From Escherichia coli (GTDB lineage Bacteria > Pseudomonadota > Gammaproteobacteria > Enterobacterales > Enterobacteriaceae), in the NCBI RefSeq assembly GCF_050920415.1, contig NZ_CP169309.1: DNA of 64,000 nucleotides; one strand, 5' to 3'. This document shows, piece after piece, positions 19,744 through 36,531 of the stretch; the stretch's first letter is position 1; each line of letters opens with the position of its first letter. The notes under the pieces were generated by a model. That model was not told the origin of the DNA, did not search any database, and saw only the letters and a program-made list of their open reading frames with translations. Position numbers and translations under genes: made by a program.

Positions 19744-20754
19744 TTAGATATGGTTAACGATTTCTTTAATCAGCGGCGGTCCTTTAAAAATAAAACCAGA
19801 ATAAATTTGCACCAGTGAGGCCCCCGCAGCAATCTTTTCACGCGCAGCGATAACCGAGTCAATGCCGCCAACACCGATGATCGGTAAGCGACCGTTTAAT
19901 TCCTGAGACAAACGGCGAATAATTTCGGTGCTTTTTAACTGTAGCGGACGACCACTTAAGCCCCCAGTTTGATCGCAATTTTTCATACCCTGTACCAAAG
20001 AACGATCGAGCGTGGTATTGGTTGCAATAACGCCATCAATATTATGGCGAACTAAACTATCGGCAACCTGGATCAATTCTTCTTCAGAAAGATCCGGCGC
20101 GATCTTCACTGCGATCGGCACATATTTATGGTGCATCGCTTGCAAATCATTTTGCTTATTTTTAATCGCGGTTAAGAGATCATCCAGCGCTTCGCCATAT
20201 TGCAGTGTGCGTAGTCCTGGGGTATTCGGCGATGAAATATTGATGGCGATATATCCCGCATAAGCATAGATTTTTTCCATACAAATCAGATAGTCATCTT
20301 TACCCTGCTCCACCGGCGTATCTTTATTTTTGCCGATGTTAATACCCAGGACGCCATCATAATGGGCTTTTTTTACGTTCTCTACGAGGTTATCAACGCC
20401 AAGATTATTAAAGCCCATACGGTTGATCAAACCTTCGGCATCTACCAGACGAAAGAGACGCGGCTTGTCATTACCTGGCTGTGGACGTGGCGTGACGGTA
20501 CCGATCTCGATAGATCCAAACCCCATCGCGCCTAACGCGTCAATGCACTCCCCGTCTTTATCAAGACCGGCTGCCAGACCAAGCGGATTTTTAAACGTCA
20601 GGCCCATGCAGTTAACAGGTTTCGCAGGCACTTTCTGCCGCACCAGTGCTTCAAACGGCGTTCCTGTAATACGGCGTAATTGCTGAAAAGTAAACTCATG
20701 AGCGCGCTCTGGATCGAGCTGGAAAAGGGCTTTACGAACGAAGGGGTAGTACAT
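19744..20754 (-). CDS. pyrD: dihydroorotate dehydrogenase (quinone)
   Basis: 336 aa from [21 protein letters not shown]... Confidence 0.95.
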
Positions 20755-20839
20755 GAACTCTCCTGGATTCCCGGTGTGCAAACCGGGGGCGTATTATGTG
20801 CGAGTTCGGACCAAAAGGGAATTGACCTGCGGCAAAAAA

Positions 20840-28008: not shown

Positions 28009-28584
28009 ATGCGTGTCATCACCCTGGCGGGGAGTCCTCGTTTTCCTTCTCGCTCCAGTTCTTTGCTGGAATATGCGCGGGAAAAACTGAATAACCTGGA
28101 TGTCGAGGTTTATCACTGGAATCTGCAAAACTTCGCCCCGGAGGATCTGCTCTATGCCCGTTTCGATAGTCCGGCCCTGAAAACTTTTACCGAACAGCTG
28201 CAACAGGCCGATGGGTTAATTGTCGCCACACCTGTGTATAAGGCCGCCTATTCCGGAGCGCTGAAAACCCTGCTCGATCTGCTGCCAGAACGTGCGTTGC
28301 AAGACAAAGTGGTACTGCCGCTGGCAACGGGCGGTACAGTGGCTCACCTTCTGGCGGTCGATTACGCGCTTAAACCGGTATTAAGCGCGCTGAAAGCCCA
28401 GGAGATCCTGCACGGCGTGTATGCCGATGACTCACAGGTGATTGATTACCAACATAAACCACAGTTCACGCCGAATCTACAAACCCGACTTGATGCCGCG
28501 CTCGACACCTTCTGGCAGGCGCTGCACCGCCGCGATGTCCAGGTTCCTGACCTTCTGTCTCTGCGAGGTAACGCCCATGCGTAA
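28009..28584 (+). CDS. ssuE: NAD(P)H-dependent FMN reductase SsuE
   Basis: 191 aa MRVITLAGSPRFPSRSSSLLEYAR...; SD aaggaggga upstream. Confidence 0.95.
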   Translation: MRVITLAGSPRFPSRSSSLLEYAREKLNNLDVEVYHWNLQNFAPEDLLYARFDSPALKTFTEQLQQADGLIVATPVYKAAYSGALKTLLDLLPERALQDKVVLPLATGGTVAHLLAVDYALKPVLSALKAQEILHGVYADDSQVIDYQHKPQFTPNLQTRLDAALDTFWQALHRRDVQVPDLLSLRGNAHA

Positions 28585-29536
28585 GATCATTAAACTGGCG
28601 CTGGCGGGATTGCTTAGCGTCTCTACACTCGCGATTGCCGCAGAGTCGTCTCCAGATGCGTTACGTATTGGCTATCAGAAAGGCAGTATTGGTATGGTGC
28701 TGGCAAAAAGCCACCAATTATTGGAAAAACGCTATCCGAAAACCCAAATCTCGTGGGTGGAGTTCCCCGCTGGGCCGCAAATGTTGGAAGCGTTAAACGT
28801 TGGCAGTATTGATCTCGGCAGTACGGGGGATATTCCGCCAATCTTTGCTCAGGCTGCCGGAGCTGATTTGCTGTACGTGGGCGTCGAACCGCCGAAGCCA
28901 AAAGCCGAAGTGATTCTGGTGGCAGAAAACAGTCCGATCAAAACCGTAGCCGATCTTAAAGGTCACAAAGTTGCCTTTCAGAAAGGTTCCAGCTCGCACA
29001 ATCTTTTACTACGCGCACTACGCCAGGCCGGGCTTAATTTCACGGATATCCAGCCCACTTACCTGACGCCTGCCGATGCCCGCGCCGCGTTCCAGCAAGG
29101 TAACGTCGACGCATGGGCTATCTGGGATCCCTACTACTCCGCTGCGTTATTACAGGGCGGCGTGCGGGTGCTGAAAGACGGCACCGATCTCAATCAAACT
29201 GGCTCGTTTTATCTGGCTGCCCATCCGTATGCAGAAAAAAACGGCGCATTTATTCAGGGTGTACTGGCAACCTTTAGTGAGGCCGATGCGTTAACCCGCA
29301 GCCAGCGCGAGCAAAGCATCGCTTTACTGGCAAAAACGATGGGCTTACCAACGCCGGTGATTGCCTCTTATTTAGATCATCGCCCCCCTACCACCATCAA
29401 ACCGGTTAACGCCGAGGTTGCCGCCTTACAGCAGCAAACGGCAGATCTGTTTTATGAAAACCGTCTGGTGCCGGAAAAAGTCGATATTCGCCAACGTATC
29501 TGGCAGCCCACTCAACTGGAAGGAAAACAATTATGA
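28577..29536 (+). CDS. ssuA: aliphatic sulfonate periplasmic binding protein SsuA
   Basis: 319 aa from [21 protein letters not shown]; ORF-track start at 28442 is an extension inside ssuE. Confidence 0.9.
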
Positions 29537-30678
29537 GTCTGAATATGTTCTGGTTTTTACCGACCCACGGTGACGGGCATTATCTGGGAACGGAAGAAGG
29601 TTCACGCCCGGTTGATCACGGTTATCTGCAACAAATTGCACAAGCAGCGGATCGTCTGGGCTATACCGGTGTGCTGATCCCAACGGGGCGCTCCTGCGAA
29701 GATGCGTGGCTGGTTGCCGCGTCGATGATCCCGGTGACGCAACGGCTGAAGTTTCTTGTCGCCCTGCGTCCCAGCGTAAACTCTCCTACCGTTGCCGCCC
29801 GCCAGGCCGCCACGCTGGATCGTCTCTCTAACGGACGCGCGTTGTTTAATCTGGTCACAGGCAGCGATCCGCAAGAGCTGGCAGGCGACGGCGTATTCCT
29901 CGATCATTGCGAGCGTTACGAAGCCTCGTCTGAATTTACACAGGTCTGGCGGCGCTTATTGCAGGGCGAAACCGTCGATTTTAACGGTAAACATATTCAT
30001 GTACGCGGAGCAAAACTGCTCTTCCCGCCGATTCAACAGCCCTATCCTCCGCTTTACTTTGGCGGCTCGTCAGACGTCGCCCAGGATCTGGCCGCTGAAC
30101 AGGTTGATCTCTACCTCACCTGGGGCGAACCACCGGCGCTGGTAAAAGAGAAGATCGCGCAAGTGCGGGCGAAAGCTGCCGCACATGGACGCAAAATTCG
30201 TTTCGGTATTCGCCTGCACGTGATTGTCCGCGAAACTAACGACGAAGCGTGGCAGGCCGCTAAGCGCTTAATCTCCCATCTTGATGATGAGACCATCGCT
30301 AAAGCACAAGCCGCGTTTGCCCGCACCGATTCCGTGGGGCAACAGCGAATGGCGGCGCTACATAACGGCAAGCGCGACAATCTGGAGATCAGCCCCAATT
30401 TATGGGCAGGCGTTGGCTTAGTGCGCGGCGGTGCCGGGACGGCGTTGGTGGGCGATGGTCCGACGGTCGCCGCGCGAATCAACGAATACGCTGCGCTTGG
30501 CATCGACAGCTTTCTGCTTTCTGGTTATCCGCATCTGGAAGAAGCGTATCGGGTCGGCGAGTTGTTGTTCCCACATCTGGATATTGCCATTCCGGAAATT
30601 CCCCAGCCACAACCGCTGAATCCGCAAGGCGAAGCGGTGGCGAATGATTTTATCCCCCGTAAAGTCGCGCAAAGCTAA
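29533..30678 (+). CDS. ssuD: FMNH2-dependent alkanesulfonate monooxygenase SsuD
   Basis: 381 aa; 4-bp overlap with ssuA. Confidence 0.95.
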
Positions 30679-30689
30679 GGAACAAAATG

Positions 30690-31481
30690 ATGGCAACGCC
30701 AGTGAAAAAGTGGTTATTGCGCGTTGCCCCCTGGTTTTTACCGGTGGGCATCGTGGCGGTGTGGCAACTGGCCTCCTCAGTTGGCTGGCTGTCGACGCGT
30801 ATTTTGCCCTCTCCGGAAGGAGTGATGACGGCGTTCTGGACGCTCTCCGCCAGTGGCGAATTGTGGCAACATCTGGCGATCAGCTCCTGGCGGGCGTTGA
30901 TTGGATTTTCAATTGGCGGATCGCTGGGGTTGATTCTGGGACTGATAAGCGGACTGTCGCGCTGGGGAGAAAGGCTGCTGGATACCTCAATTCAGATGTT
31001 GCGCAACGTGCCGCATCTGGCGCTGATCCCGCTGGTGATTTTGTGGTTTGGCATTGATGAATCCGCAAAAATCTTTCTGGTGGCGCTCGGCACGCTATTC
31101 CCCATTTATATCAACACCTGGCACGGCATCCGTAATATCGATCGCGGTCTGGTGGAAATGGCGCGTAGCTATGGATTATCCGGCATACCGCTGTTTATCC
31201 ATGTGATCCTGCCTGGTGCCCTGCCCTCAATTATGGTCGGCGTACGTTTTGCGTTGGGCCTGATGTGGCTGACGCTGATTGTTGCCGAAACTATTTCTGC
31301 CAATTCCGGCATTGGTTATCTGGCGATGAATGCGCGGGAGTTTTTGCAAACGGATGTGGTGGTAGTCGCCATTATTCTCTACGCCCTGCTCGGCAAACTT
31401 GCTGACGTCAGCGCGCAGCTGTTAGAGCGCCTCTGGCTGCGCTGGAACCCGGCTTATCATTTGAAGGAGGCCACGGTATGA
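30690..31481 (+). CDS. ssuC: aliphatic sulfonate ABC permease SsuC
   Basis: 263 aa from [10 protein letters not shown]...; multiple transmembrane segments. Confidence 0.9.
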
Positions 31482-32245
31482 ATACTGCTCGTCTGAACCA
31501 GGGCACACCCTTGTTACTCAATGCAGTAAGCAAACATTACGCGGAAAATATCGTCCTGAATCAACTGGATTTACATATTCCGGCAGGTCAGTTTGTGGCG
31601 GTGGTTGGCCGCAGCGGTGGTGGCAAAAGTACCCTGCTGCGCCTGCTGGCAGGTCTGGAAACGCCAACCGCAGGCGATGTGTTAGCGGGTACCACACCGC
31701 TGGCTGAGATTCAGGAAGACACGCGAATGATGTTTCAGGATGCGCGTCTGCTACCGTGGAAATCGGTGATTGATAACGTTGGGTTAGGCCTTAAAGGCCA
31801 GTGGCGCGATGCGGCGCGTCGGGTGCTGGCTGCAGTAGGGCTGGAGAATCGCGCGGAGGAATGGCCTGCCGCACTTTCTGGCGGGCAGAAACAGCGTGTG
31901 GCGCTGGCAAGAGCGTTGATTCATCGACCGGGTTTATTATTGCTTGATGAACCGCTCGGGGCGCTGGACGCCCTGACTCGGCTCGAGATGCAGGATTTGA
32001 TTGTGTCACTTTGGCAGGAGCACGGCTTTACCGTACTGTTGGTGACGCATGATGTGAGCGAAGCGGTAGCAATGGCGGACCGGGTGTTGTTAATTGAAGA
32101 GGGAAAAATTGGTCTGGATTTGACGGTGGATATCCCCCGTCCGCGCCGATTAGGGTCGGTGCGATTAGCGGAGCTGGAAGCGGAAGTGTTGCAGCGGGTA
32201 ATGCAGCGTGGGCATTCTGAACAACCGATTCGACGTCATGGTTAA
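31478..32245 (+). CDS. ssuB: aliphatic sulfonate ABC ATP-binding protein SsuB
   Basis: 255 aa with Walker [10 protein letters not shown] and LSGGQKQR signature; 4-bp overlap with ssuC. Confidence 0.95.
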
Positions 32246-32248
32246 TAT

Positions 32249-32445
32249 GCCGGATGTGGCGCACAAAACCAGCGGTTTCAACGGATTGTAGGCCTGATAA
32301 GACGCGTCAAGCGTCGCATCAGGCATTTGGGCACGGCTGCCGGATGCGGCGTGAACGCCTTATCCAGCCTACAAAACCAGCATTTTCAACGGACTTGTAG
32401 GCCTGATAAGACGCGTCAAGCGTCGCATCCGGCATTTGGGCTCAA
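32249..32445. repeat. REP/BIME cluster between convergent ssuB and pepN
   Basis: two near-identical ~68-bp units (32265-32332 and 32372-32441) separated by the REP-type sequence gccggatgcggcgtgaacgccttatccagcctac. Confidence 0.85.
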
Positions 32446-32450
32446 AAGTA

Positions 32451-35063
32451 TCAAGCCAGTGCTTTAGTTATCTTCTCGTACAGATCTCCAGAGAGATTTT
32501 CCAGCCCTTTCAACTGCTCCAGCGCCGCGCGCATTTTCTCCTGACGTTTGGCATCGTAACGCTTCAGGCGAATCAGCGGTTCAATCAGACGTGAAGCCAC
32601 CTGCGGGTTACGGCTGTTGAGGTCGGTAAGCATTTCCACCAGGAACTGGTAACCGCTGCCATCTTCGGCATGGAACGCTGCCGGGTTGCTGCCCGCAAAT
32701 GCCCCAATCAACGAACGAATGCGGTTCGGGTTGCTCATGGTAAATGAGCGATGCTGCAACAGACCACGCACCGTCTCCAGCACATTTGCCGCCGGACTCG
32801 TGGCTTGCAGGATAAACCATTTATCCATCACCAGACCGTCCTGATGCCACTTGTCGTCGTACTCCTGCATCAGCGCGTCACGGCATGGCAGCTGTGCGGC
32901 AACCGCCGCAGAAAGCGCCGCCAGCGCATCGGTCATATTGTTTGCTTCATGGTACTGCTTGCTTACCAGCACGTCAGCCAGATGCGTTTCACCAAAAGCG
33001 AGGAAGCGCAGGCAGGCATTACGCAGAGTGCGTTTTGCAATATCTTCATGCTCAACGCGGTACTCGCTCTGATAATTTGCGTTATAAATAGCCAGCAGCT
33101 CATCCGCCAGTTCAGTCGCCAGAGTACGGGTAAGTGCTTCGCGTACTTCGGCAATAGCAATCGGGTCGATGATATCGAACAGTTCCGCCATTTCATTGAC
33201 GGATGGCAGCGTCAGAATTTCTGCCGCCAGTGCCGGGTCAATCTTCTCATCCAGCAGCACCGCGCGGAAAGCATCGGCAACGTGTGCGGGTAAAGACAAT
33301 GGTTGACCTTGCTGATGACGGGCGACGTTCAGTTTGATGTAGGTTGCCAGCAGGCTTTGTGCCGCATCCCAGCGGGAGAAATCATTACGCGCATGACGCA
33401 TCAGGAAGGTCAGTTGCTGATCGCTCCACTTATATTCCAGTTTCACTGGCGCAGAGAATTCACACAGCAGTGCGGGCACCGGCTGGAAGTAGACATTATC
33501 AAAGACAAAGGTCTGTTCCGCCTGGGTGACGTTCAGTACCGAATTCACCGGGTGACCGCCTTTCTGCAACGGGATCACTTTGCCTTCGTTGTCATACAGT
33601 TCAATGGCAAACGGAATATGCAGCGGCTGTTTTTCTGCCTGATCCGGCGTAGCAGGCGTGCGCTGGCTGATGGTCAGGGTGTACTGCTCGGTTTCCGGAT
33701 TATAGTCGTCTTTGACGGTCACAACCGGCGTACCGGACTGGCTGTACCAACGGCGGAAATGGGAGAGATCGACATTTGACGCATCTTCCATCGCCTGAAC
33801 AAAGTCGTCGCAGGTTGCCGCACTGCCATCATGGCGCTCGAAATAGAGCTGCATCCCTTTCTGGAAGTTTTCTTCGCCCAGCAGAGTGTGGATCATGCGA
33901 ATCACTTCCGCGCCCTTCTCATAAACGGTCAGGGTGTAGAAGTTGTTCATTTCAATAACCATATCCGGGCGGATCGGGTGCGCCATCGGGCTGGCGTCTT
34001 CCGCAAACTGCAATCCGCGCATGGTGCGCACGTTGTTGATACGGTTTACTGCGCGGGAACCAAGATCAGAGCTGAATTCCTGATCGCGGAAGACGGTTAA
34101 GCCTTCTTTCAGGCTGAGCTGGAACCAGTCGCGGCAGGTCACACGGTTACCGGTCCAGTTATGGAAATATTCATGACCAATAACGCGCTCAATATCGAGA
34201 TAATCTTTATCGGTCGCGGTATCGATGCGCGCCAGTACATACTTAGAGTTAAAGATGTTAAGACCTTTATTCTCCATTGCGCCCATATTGAAGAAATCCA
34301 CCGCGACTATCATATAGATGTCGAGGTCATACTCCAGACCGAAGCGTTCTTCATCCCACTTCATGGAATTTTTCAGCGAGGTCATCGCCCACGGTGCACG
34401 GTCGAGATTACCACGATCAACATACAGCTCTAGCGCCACTTCGCGACCAGAACGCGTGGTGAAGGTGTCGCGCAGTACATCAAAGTCACCTGCCACCAGC
34501 GCAAACAGGTAGCACGGTTTCGGGAACGGGTCCTGCCATTGTACCCAGTGGCGTCCGTTTTCCAGTTCGCCTTGCGCAACGCGGTTACCGTTGGAAAGCA
34601 GGAACGGGTATTTGGTTTTATCGGCAATAATTTTGGTGGTAAAACGCGCCAGCACGTCCGGGCGGTCGAGATAATACGTAATATGGCGGAAACCTTCGGC
34701 TTCACACTGGGTGCAAAGCGCATCGCCTGACTGATAAAGCCCTTCCAGCGCAGTATTCGCCGCTGGGCTAATTTCATTAACGATCTTGAGCGTAAAACGC
34801 TCCGGCAAATTACTGATGACCAGTGCGCCCTCTTCTTCTTTCCAGGCGGTCCACGGCTCATCATTAATATGAACAGAAACCAGTTTAAGATCTTCGCCAT
34901 CAAGACGAAGCGGAGCATCTGATGCACCATGACGGACAGCCTGGCTGACCGCGGTAACGACCGTCTTTTGCGCGTCCAGGTCAAAGGTCAAGTCAATATC
35001 AGTAATCTGGTAATCCGGCGCACGATAATCGTGACGGTATTTGGCTTGTGGCTGTTGAGTCAT
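32451..35063 (-). CDS. pepN: aminopeptidase N
   Basis: 870 aa with GAMEN and HEYFH zinc-binding motifs. Confidence 0.95.
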   Translation of the reverse strand: MTQQPQAKYRHDYRAPDYQITDIDLTFDLDAQKTVVTAVSQAVRHGASDAPLRLDGEDLKLVSVHINDEPWTAWKEEEGALVISNLPERFTLKIVNEISPAANTALEGLYQSGDALCTQCEAEGFRHITYYLDRPDVLARFTTKIIADKTKYPFLLSNGNRVAQGELENGRHWVQWQDPFPKPCYLFALVAGDFDVLRDTFTTRSGREVALELYVDRGNLDRAPWAMTSLKNSMKWDEERFGLEYDLDIYMIVAVDFFNMGAMENKGLNIFNSKYVLARIDTATDKDYLDIERVIGHEYFHNWTGNRVTCRDWFQLSLKEGLTVFRDQEFSSDLGSRAVNRINNVRTMRGLQFAEDASPMAHPIRPDMVIEMNNFYTLTVYEKGAEVIRMIHTLLGEENFQKGMQLYFERHDGSAATCDDFVQAMEDASNVDLSHFRRWYSQSGTPVVTVKDDYNPETEQYTLTISQRTPATPDQAEKQPLHIPFAIELYDNEGKVIPLQKGGHPVNSVLNVTQAEQTFVFDNVYFQPVPALLCEFSAPVKLEYKWSDQQLTFLMRHARNDFSRWDAAQSLLATYIKLNVARHQQGQPLSLPAHVADAFRAVLLDEKIDPALAAEILTLPSVNEMAELFDIIDPIAIAEVREALTRTLATELADELLAIYNANYQSEYRVEHEDIAKRTLRNACLRFLAFGETHLADVLVSKQYHEANNMTDALAALSAAVAAQLPCRDALMQEYDDKWHQDGLVMDKWFILQATSPAANVLETVRGLLQHRSFTMSNPNRIRSLIGAFAGSNPAAFHAEDGSGYQFLVEMLTDLNSRNPQVASRLIEPLIRLKRYDAKRQEKMRAALEQLKGLENLSGDLYEKITKALA

Positions 35064-35282
35064 AAATAACCTTTAGCATCTTTTATAGAGTCTGGTGTTC
35101 AGTCTATTCCTGTTGCGTAAATCGCGCTATGCAGAATCTTCATCTTTTCAGGTACAAACGCCTTTATTGCTACATTTTTATAACATACGCAGCGCAATAC
35201 CATCGACCAGAAAGGTGACATATGGTGTGATCGGGGTTCAATAAATTACGAAACAAGGTATACTCCAGCAGTTCCTGAAGAT

Positions 35283-35299
35283 GTTTATTGTACTAAACG
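35283..35299 (+). promoter_or_regulatory. NadR operator upstream of pncB
   Basis: tgtttattgtactaaac: TGTTTA-N6-TAAAC palindrome 30 bp upstream of the pncB ATG. Confidence 0.6.
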
Positions 35300-35328
35300 C
35301 TCCTGTACGAGGACGCTACTGCGCACCT

Positions 35329-36531
35329 ATGACACAATTCGCTTCTCCTGTTCTGCACTCGTTGCTGGATACAGATGCTTATAAGTTGCATATGCAGCAA
35401 GCCGTGTTTCATCACTATTACGATGTGCATGTCGCGGCGGAGTTTCGTTGCCGAGGTGACGATCTGCTGGGTATTTATGCCGATGCTATTCGTGAACAGG
35501 TTCAGGCGATGCAGCATCTGCGCCTGCAGGATGATGAATATCAATGGCTCTCAGCCCTGCCTTTCTTTAAAGCCGACTATCTTAACTGGCTACGCGAGTT
35601 CCGCTTTAACCCGGAACAAGTCACCGTGTCCAACGATAATGGCAAGCTGGATATTCGTTTAAGCGGCCCGTGGCGTGAAGTCATCCTCTGGGAAGTTCCT
35701 TTGCTGGCGGTTATCAGTGAAATGGTACATCGCTATCGCTCACCGCAGGCCGACGTTGCGCAAGCCCTCGACACGCTGGAAAGCAAATTAGTCGACTTCT
35801 CGGCATTAACCGCCGATCTTGATATGTCGCGCTTCCATCTGATGGATTTTGGCACCCGCCGCCGTTTTTCTCGCGAAGTACAAGAAACCATCGTTAAGCG
35901 TCTACAACAAGAATCCTGGTTCGTAGGCACCAGTAATTACGATCTGGCGCGTCGGCTTTCCCTCACGCCAATGGGAACACAAGCACACGAATGGTTCCAG
36001 GCACATCAGCAAATCAGCCCGGACCTTGCCAACAGCCAGCGAGCTGCACTTGCTGCCTGGCTGGAAGAATATCCTGACCAACTTGGCATTGCGTTAACCG
36101 ACTGTATTACCATGGATGCGTTCCTGCGAGATTTCGGCGTAGAATTTGCCAGCCGCTATCAGGGCCTGCGTCATGACTCTGGCGACCCGGTTGAATGGGG
36201 CGAAAAAGCCATTGCACATTATGAGAAGCTGGGAATTGATCCGCAGAGTAAAACGCTGGTTTTCTCTGACAATCTGGATTTACGCAAAGCGGTTGAGCTA
36301 TACCGGCACTTCTCCTCCCGTGTGCAATTAAGTTTTGGTATTGGGACTCGCCTGACCTGCGATATCCCCCAGGTAAAACCCCTGAATATTGTCATTAAGC
36401 TGGTGGAGTGTAACGGTAAACCGGTGGCGAAACTTTCTGACAGCCCTGGCAAAACTATCTGCCACGATAAAGCGTTTGTTCGGGCGCTGCGCAAAGCGTT
36501 CGACCTTCCGCATATTAAAAAAGCCAGTTAA
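35329..36531 (+). CDS. pncB: nicotinate phosphoribosyltransferase
   Basis: 400 aa from [24 protein letters not shown]...; ORF-track start at 35281 is an extension. Confidence 0.95.

Follow-up and report, generated by a model that had tools for sequence, protein, structure and literature searches.

The ssuB-pepN junction

The stretch of Escherichia coli DNA dealt with here, below termed the window, is 64,000 nucleotides long, and what is of interest in it is a junction of convergent genes, where the order is ssuC, ssuB (31478-32245, + strand) and pepN (32451-35063, - strand). The identity of ssuB comes from an NCBIfam model, NF008420 (SsuB), which scores 497 bits against a cut-off of 395, and that of pepN from TIGR02414 (PepN), an NCBIfam equivalog model, which scores 1257 bits and so is well above its cut-off. 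Between the two stop codons is a spacer of 205 bp, 32246-32450, which is filled by REPs: three complete REP hairpins (Z2, Y, Z2) and one half-REP. Among the RefSeq records examined no feature is annotated in the spacer. Its components and boundaries are as follows.

32210-32245, + strand: last ~11 codons of ssuB, the left part of an allelic cassette, which co-vary with the type of spacer
32243-32245, + strand: stop codon TAA of ssuB (open reading frame 31478-32245), left boundary of the spacer
32248-32264, + strand: truncated Y-type REP, head arm TGCCGGATGTGGCGC followed by 'AC', a remnant of CTAC (repeat family D3)
32265-32287, unstranded: tail-to-tail linker 1, AAAACCAGCGGTTTCAACGGATT, 23 nt (repeat family D2)
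32288-32324, + strand: Z2 REP 'a', GTAG at 32288-32291 and a 33-nt imperfect palindrome at 32292-32324 (inverted repeat I6)
32291-32369, - strand: Y-l-Z2 core, match to Rfam naRNA4 (RF02564)
32325-32338, unstranded: head-to-head linker, ATTTGGGCACGGCT, 14 nt, which aligns with the linker of the naRNA4/REP325 model
32339-32372, - strand: Y-type REP, palindrome at 32339-32368 and CTAC at 32369-32372 (GTAG on the - strand)
32373-32396, unstranded: tail-to-tail linker 2, AAAACCAGCATTTTCAACGGACTT, 24 nt
32397-32433, + strand: Z2 REP 'b', GTAG at 32397-32400 and palindrome at 32401-32433 (Z2 pattern match)
32434-32450, unstranded: right flank, ATTTGGGCTCAAAAGTA, 17 nt between Z2 REP 'b' and the pepN stop codon; repeat family D1 reaches 32441
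32451-32453, - strand: stop codon TGA of pepN (open reading frame 32451-35063), right boundary of the spacer

Are these REPs in the accepted sense? A REP (or PU) was taken to be a 30-40-nt imperfect palindrome matching GCC(G/T)GATG...CTTATC(A/C)GGC. The spacer has three such consensus palindromes, with GTAG feet at 32288-32291 and 32397-32400 and CTAC at 32369-32372 (the half-Y retains 'AC' only), they are extragenic, and there are dispersed copies: a query of 505 bp spanning the junction matches at a median of at least 35 places per E. coli genome, with 2458 records giving lower bounds. The Z2 consensus is matched twice with 0 mismatches, where 0.00 matches were expected, and the REP head and tail motifs occur five and four times against expectations of 0.9 and 0.45; outside the spacer these motifs have only two matches (31175 and 33637), each with 1-2 mismatches, and the cluster is the sole one of its kind within the 64 kb. 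Individually, Z2 REP 'a' is an exact match to the Z2 consensus and its hairpin has a predicted energy of -21.8 kcal/mol; the Y REP at 32339-32372 has an exact head motif and a tail motif with 1 mismatch (-17.7 kcal/mol on the + strand, -18.7 on the - strand); Z2 REP 'b' comes to -17.1 kcal/mol; and the half-Y, the head motif of which has 1 mismatch, folds weakly at -5.1 kcal/mol. On its own each complete REP folds, as expected, into an imperfect hairpin (-16.6 to -21.8 kcal/mol), and for the 216-nt region as a whole the folding z-scores are -8.1 (+ strand) and -7.2 (- strand). An earlier note on this DNA had proposed that a composite REP/BIME element fills the junction where ssuB and pepN converge, with units flanking a classic REP and open to refutation should the expected stem-loops fail to form. 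The repeats, consensus matches and folds bear it out: the classic REP is the Y-type one at 32339-32368, and all complete REPs fold as expected.

Two single positions deserve mention. The A at 32366, in the Y tail, breaks one stem pair; the examined sequences from E. coli proper share it, and G takes its place in L007, L008 and L014, which are divergent genomes. The C at 32430 breaks one outer-stem pair of Z2 REP 'b', giving a Y-like head, and is common to strains MLI121 and VE-T9.

The repeat unit

Three families of direct repeats run co-linearly through the spacer, with spacings of 109, 108 and 90 bp. D1 pairs 32286-32332 with 32395-32441 (47 nt, 98% identical), D2 pairs 32263-32285 with 32371-32393 (23 nt, 91% identical), and D3, overlooked in the earlier note, pairs 32248-32261 with 32338-32351 (14 nt, 93% identical). 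Joined, D1 and D2 make units of 70 bp (32263-32332) and 71 bp (32371-32441), and their alignment, proposed earlier as a check, shows 3 substitutions and 1 one-base indel between the two. The two near-identical units that had been put at ~68 bp are thus real, but they are not the whole period. With D3 included, the true unit is a tandem of 108/109 bp with the order Y REP, tail-to-tail linker, Z2 REP and head-to-head linker, and the half-REP at the start of the array is a first Y REP without its 3′ arm. Compared with the full Y at 32339-32372, the half-Y at 32248-32264 has some 20 bp deleted, comprising the loop, the 3′ arm and 'CT'. At the other end, the first 8 nt of the right flank (32434-32450) are a copy of the start of the head-to-head linker.

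What kind of BIME?

In the usual scheme BIME-1 elements consist of Z1 and Y REPs, have a conserved long L linker which often binds IHF, and are single, BIME-2 elements consist of Z2 and Y REPs with short linkers and are in tandem copies, and 'atypical BIMEs' are chimeras of the two (Ton-Hoang et al., PMC3333891). At ssuB-pepN the order is (half Y)-Z2-Y-Z2 with alternating orientation and in tandem, which is the composition of BIME-2, and the number of units varies between strains, as with BIME-2 tandem copies. Of its linkers, the head-to-head one can be aligned with the l linker in the naRNA4 model, and the tail-to-tail one is locus-specific and does not resemble its counterpart in REP325. The element is, judged by its letters, BIME-2-like or an 'atypical BIME', an assignment by REP types and layout only; the label 'atypical' is considered because the tail-to-tail linker is non-canonical. 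Binding and cleavage by TnpA_REP need GTAG and a mismatch in the stem (PMC3333891), and here GTAG is present and the predicted stems have internal mismatches.

The nearest well-known relative is REP325, the BIME-2 cluster between yjdM and yjdN of K-12 that is the source of naRNA1-6. In common are inverted alternating Y and Z2 REPs with GTAG/CTAC feet, an l-like head-to-head linker of 13-14 nt (AACGGTGCCGACT in REP325) and tandem units of ~100 bp. However, REP325 has six units in contrast to the two here, where also the first Y is half deleted; its tail-to-tail linker is 17 nt, AAATTCCCGCACCCTCC, and the ones here are unrelated and of 23-24 nt; and the ssuB-pepN BIME is not in K-12.

The relationship to REP325 surfaces in Rfam. 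naRNA4 is the 77-nt Y-l-Z2 unit of that cluster (PMC4550694), and its model, RF02564, matches 32291-32369 on the - strand over the full model (1-77), with 82.2 bits against a gathering threshold of 59.5 (E = 6e-15 in a scan of 901 bases and 4e-13 when the whole window is scanned); there is no second such match in the 64 kb. Might the Y-l-Z2 core then give a small RNA of naRNA4 type, one which would bind HU and contribute to condensation of the nucleoid? The score is above threshold and the match is on the sense strand of pepN. However, the Rfam model in effect fits any Y-l-Z2 BIME unit and so conveys family resemblance rather than function, there is no promoter-like site in the spacer, between the core and the stop codon of pepN are 82 nt and a further REP hairpin, and the locus is missing from 58% of genomes. 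Such a small RNA is quite unlikely here.

The tail-to-tail linker and IHF

The earlier note had also mentioned IHF binding among the potential properties of the element. That property belongs to BIME-1, known also as RIB or RIP, with which there are similarities in that an inverted REP pair has a longish tail-to-tail linker and is at the 3′ end of transcription units. A BIME-1 recruiting IHF through the long linker would also fit with an IHF-like core in linker 1, at 32276-32288, where TTTCAACGGATTG is one mismatch from WATCAANNNNTTR. Yet by the definitions in PMC3333891 the REPs here with a GCCTGAT head are of the long Z2 form, not Z1, and the unit is repeated in tandem where a BIME-1 would be single. 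Furthermore, a scan of the window with the consensus gives 57 cores with 1 mismatch against 55.3 expected, i.e., chance level, and the one-base insertion in linker 2 spoils even the one match in question.

Nor is the linker the conserved L motif. With a 36-nt linker query (blastn, E-value limit 0.01) matches were found in 2249 of 5426 complete E. coli genomes, at 1-4 places in each with a median of 2, and judging from these matches the linker is specific to the ssuB-pepN locus, to which all places per genome are attributable. The idea that it is a dispersed motif, L or S, was consequently rejected, as at that E-value limit it occurs only at this locus, and with the consensus scan at chance level so was the reading of the element as an IHF site of RIB/RIP type, which we would regard as extremely improbable. 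Six of the 4442 linker-matching places are on plasmid records.

Two alleles

The 505-bp junction query was the first indication that the junction is dimorphic, and queries specific for each allele provided the counts. The allele with the BIME linker is present in 2249 of 5426 complete E. coli genomes (41%), and a K-12-type junction, that of K-12 included, is present in 3173 (58%); the two counts sum to 5422. In the K-12 allele the counterpart of window 32210-32450 is 215-292 of locus L001, and the spacer is a non-homologous one of 42 bp. On its + strand it has a terminator-like hairpin, CCGAATGGCGGC...GCCGCCATTCGG then TTATTTAT, and on its - strand there is another terminator-like site, for which the final codons of ssuB supply the stem and the T-run. 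As those codons partly encode the - strand terminator, the K-12 allele has a different SsuB C-terminal tail, GESETRLRKQG*, from the ~11-codon tail of the window allele. The difference is abrupt: K-12 and strain W ssuB differ at 17 of the last 35 nt but at only 8 of the 115 before them. There is diversity within the K-12 allele too, with identity down to ~95% over 96 nt, so that this allele is not recent either. One K-12-type locus, L019 (strain 23GD11002), has an IS4-like element, IS421, between ssuB and pepN at 218-1330.

A scan for terminators found two sites in the K-12 allele, one per strand, and in the window spacer the corresponding scan for terminators and promoters found 0 terminator-like and 0 promoter-like sites. 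Could the REP hairpins themselves be factor-independent bidirectional terminators? They are strong, GC-rich, directly after both genes, and occupy the place taken in the other allele by the terminator hairpins; against this, none of them is followed by a T/U run on either strand, and the scan result just given also counts against it. On balance, termination by the hairpins unaided is unlikely.

That the two non-homologous 3′-end cassettes constitute an old two-allele system, both being at intermediate frequency, is a further proposition, and we consider it very unlikely. If the split between the alleles is kept by selection and not by population structure, the junction would be a natural experiment on the equivalence of a BIME and intrinsic terminators.

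The strain from which the window comes is unusually far removed from K-12 and W in this region. Across 28245-36450, ssuD-ssuB and pepN have 88-97% identity to K-12 and W per 200-bp bin, with ssuB and the 3′ end of pepN at 95-97%, and the 505-bp junction query has matches of at least 99% identity in only 10 of 5468 records. This suggests either recombination in the region or a lineage of E. coli that is itself divergent.

Variation in unit number and insertion of IS1397

Variability in copy number and arrangement between strains had been anticipated, and there is plenty: one, two and three units, a truncated last REP, interruption by IS1397, and absence in 3173 of the 5426 genomes. VE-T9 has a single unit in a spacer of 96 bp, and in this unit the linker of unit 1 is joined to the tail of unit 2, a chimera which implies unequal crossover. 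The window and strain W have two units (spacers of 205 and 206 bp), as do BEN2908 and SCU-176, where the spacer is 194 bp and the last Z2 is without its 3′ arm following an 11-bp loss. MLI121 (locus L004) has an extra REP, and L007 has three units in a spacer of 307 bp. At one position in the linker T in unit 1 and A in unit 2 is common to W, BEN2908 and E. whittamii, and this suggests that the duplication of the unit predates the split between these lineages, though in weighing concerted evolution against orthology of the units it is relevant that the differences are few and that other lineages look homogenised.

IS1397 (1432 bp) is found inside the loop of the last Z2 REP, at the equivalent of window ~32415-32418, in locus L003 (2824-4255) and in L004 (2868-4299). 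The two copies are 99.2% identical. They are in opposite orientations and have different target duplications, GTCA (4 bp) and TCA (3 bp), and so are independent insertions. Locus-specific IS1397 junctions are present in ~200 genomes, ~153 with one orientation and ~50 with the other. Bachellier et al. (Genetics, 1997) reportedly dealt with polymorphic BIME loci as IS1397 targets. The present locus is like such loci in its presence/absence and copy-number polymorphism between E. coli strains, and in insertion into a REP loop, in both orientations, with a duplication of 3-4 bp. It is unlike them in that the alternative here is not an empty site but a terminator cassette which reaches ~35 nt into ssuB. 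That IS1397 targets REPs is known, as cited in passages of PMC1525189 and PMC3333891.

Which cassette came first?

Outgroup loci, ten of them, were obtained from a collection of species-representative genomes with a degenerate pattern on the PepN C-terminus. E. whittamii has the half-Y - Z2 - Y - Z2 arrangement of the window together with an SsuB tail ending ...EQPIRRHG. L007 and L008, which are labelled E. coli yet divergent (their flanking genes are 88-93% identical to those of the window), have three and two units. The half-REP, too, recurs in E. whittamii and in a pair of divergent Escherichia genomes. What E. albertii has is a single degenerate unit, whose Y is degenerate and full-length, beside a 3′ remnant of ssuB; that full-length Y could be ancestral, or could derive from recombination between half and full Y. 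In E. albertii NBRC 107761 (L005, ~2450-2675, reverse complement) the ssu operon has apparently been deleted with the exception of a ssuB remnant of ~100 bp. Further out, Citrobacter amalonaticus has a tail that is EQPIRRHG-like at the nucleotide level, and one Y REP together with a terminator hairpin; in Enterobacter the spacers are unrelated. For EQPIRRHG* to be read in the C. amalonaticus locus (L010) the frame has to shift at a run of G, for which a frameshift or an assembly error could be responsible.

The K-12-type cassette was seen in E. coli proper alone, the outgroup loci examined having either the BIME type or unrelated spacers. As the BIME form is in E. whittamii, E. albertii and two divergent Escherichia genomes, it is probably the ancestral one within Escherichia, and the terminator cassette would have replaced it later.

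Origin and function

The reading that we favour, with a probability of roughly 85%, is of a BIME-2-like or atypical REP cluster of two ~108-bp units that would have arisen by local duplication, and would serve as a 3′-end block and probably as a gyrase site. The REPs themselves would have come from the E. coli REP family, the spread of which is attributed to the REP-associated tyrosine transposase, RayT. Subsequently there would have been local duplication, and then gain and loss of units by unequal recombination between the copies. Local amplification is proposed because the linker is only at this locus, because of the chimeric unit in VE-T9 and because of the three-unit array of L007. No rayT is present in the part of the window that was examined. 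By megablast, 3575 of 5426 complete E. coli genomes have a close copy of rayT of K-12 (L023, 2138-2635), so about a third of these REP-rich genomes are without one.

What might such a cluster do for its host? At the RNA level it would lie in the 3′ untranslated region of both convergent units, ssuEADCB and pepN, and in this allele the REP hairpins are predicted to be the sole stable 3′ structures. They most likely stop 3′-5′ exonucleases after diffuse Rho-dependent termination, and in so doing would fix where the mRNAs end and keep those 3′ ends from degradation. According to PMC6061677, many transcripts terminated by Rho have their steady-state 3′ ends at REP hairpins, which are resistant to 3′-5′ exonucleases; on this the paper refers to Newbury 1987, Khemici & Carpousis 2004 and Espeli 2001. 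At the DNA level a Y/Z2 pair is the kind of site that would be bound and cleaved by gyrase, and BIME-2 elements, Y REPs especially, are preferred gyrase cleavage sites independently of transcription (PMC6379681). A gyrase site would suit a junction at which convergent transcription may be expected to build up positive supercoils. By family resemblance, then, both gyrase binding and mRNA stabilisation, which had been ascribed to elements of this type in the earlier note, are plausible for this one.

The nearest complete hairpins are 46 nt past the ssuB stop codon and 17 nt past that of pepN. An effect on translation of REPs near stop codons, said to have been reported by Liang, Rudd and Deutscher in 2015 with a limit of ~15 nt, was considered and set aside, both distances being beyond that limit.

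Whatever the function, the exact structure is dispensable, given the 3173 genomes with the terminator allele, the splitting of the element by IS1397 and the loss of 11 bp of an arm. Support for the structure at the level of the locus was also sought from covariation in the Z2 stems, and none was obtained: nine distinct copies from the locus have 0 compensatory changes and 7 unpaired cells, and their pairing is no better than that of shuffles. By this measure the stems at this locus look nearer to neutral decay than to selection on hairpins. Is the cluster then selfish or neutral repeat DNA, REPIN-like and mobilised by RayT, which has no host function here and persists as it is harmless? That half of the species does without the BIME is in keeping with this, as are units being gained, lost, truncated and split by IS1397, the state of the Z2 stems, and the degenerate copy retained by E. 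albertii despite deletion of the adjacent ssu operon. However, the BIME allele is without any other terminator-like structure where the alternative allele has two, so that a 3′-end role is to be expected by default, and the arrangement, half-REP included, has been kept in E. whittamii and the two divergent Escherichia genomes. A harmless selfish repeat is thus a tentative alternative to the functional cluster favoured above, and one that keeps substantial weight because compensatory changes are absent and both truncation and IS insertion are tolerated.

Broader relevance

Few bacterial repeats have been known for longer than REP/BIME clusters, and that at ssuB-pepN is an ordinary E. coli cluster of this well-known kind, the one notable feature of which is its replacement by a terminator cassette in ~58% of genomes. 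As it behaves in the way that the literature predicts, it matters little for biology at large. A search of the literature found no paper describing a BIME at ssuB-pepN, and there is an annotation gap in that REP lists based on K-12 miss the locus. As strains vary in the number of units, in insertion of IS1397 and in the SsuB tail linked to the spacer, it is convenient as a marker. Also, the one convergent junction allows a clean natural comparison of a BIME with intrinsic terminators, with thousands of genomes on each side. The terminator/BIME dimorphism and its linkage to the SsuB tail make a tidy natural experiment, albeit one that would not surprise a specialist.

Elsewhere in the window, 20749-20822 on the - strand matches the Rfam model of the PyrD leader (RF02373) with 97.9 bits against a gathering threshold of 47.
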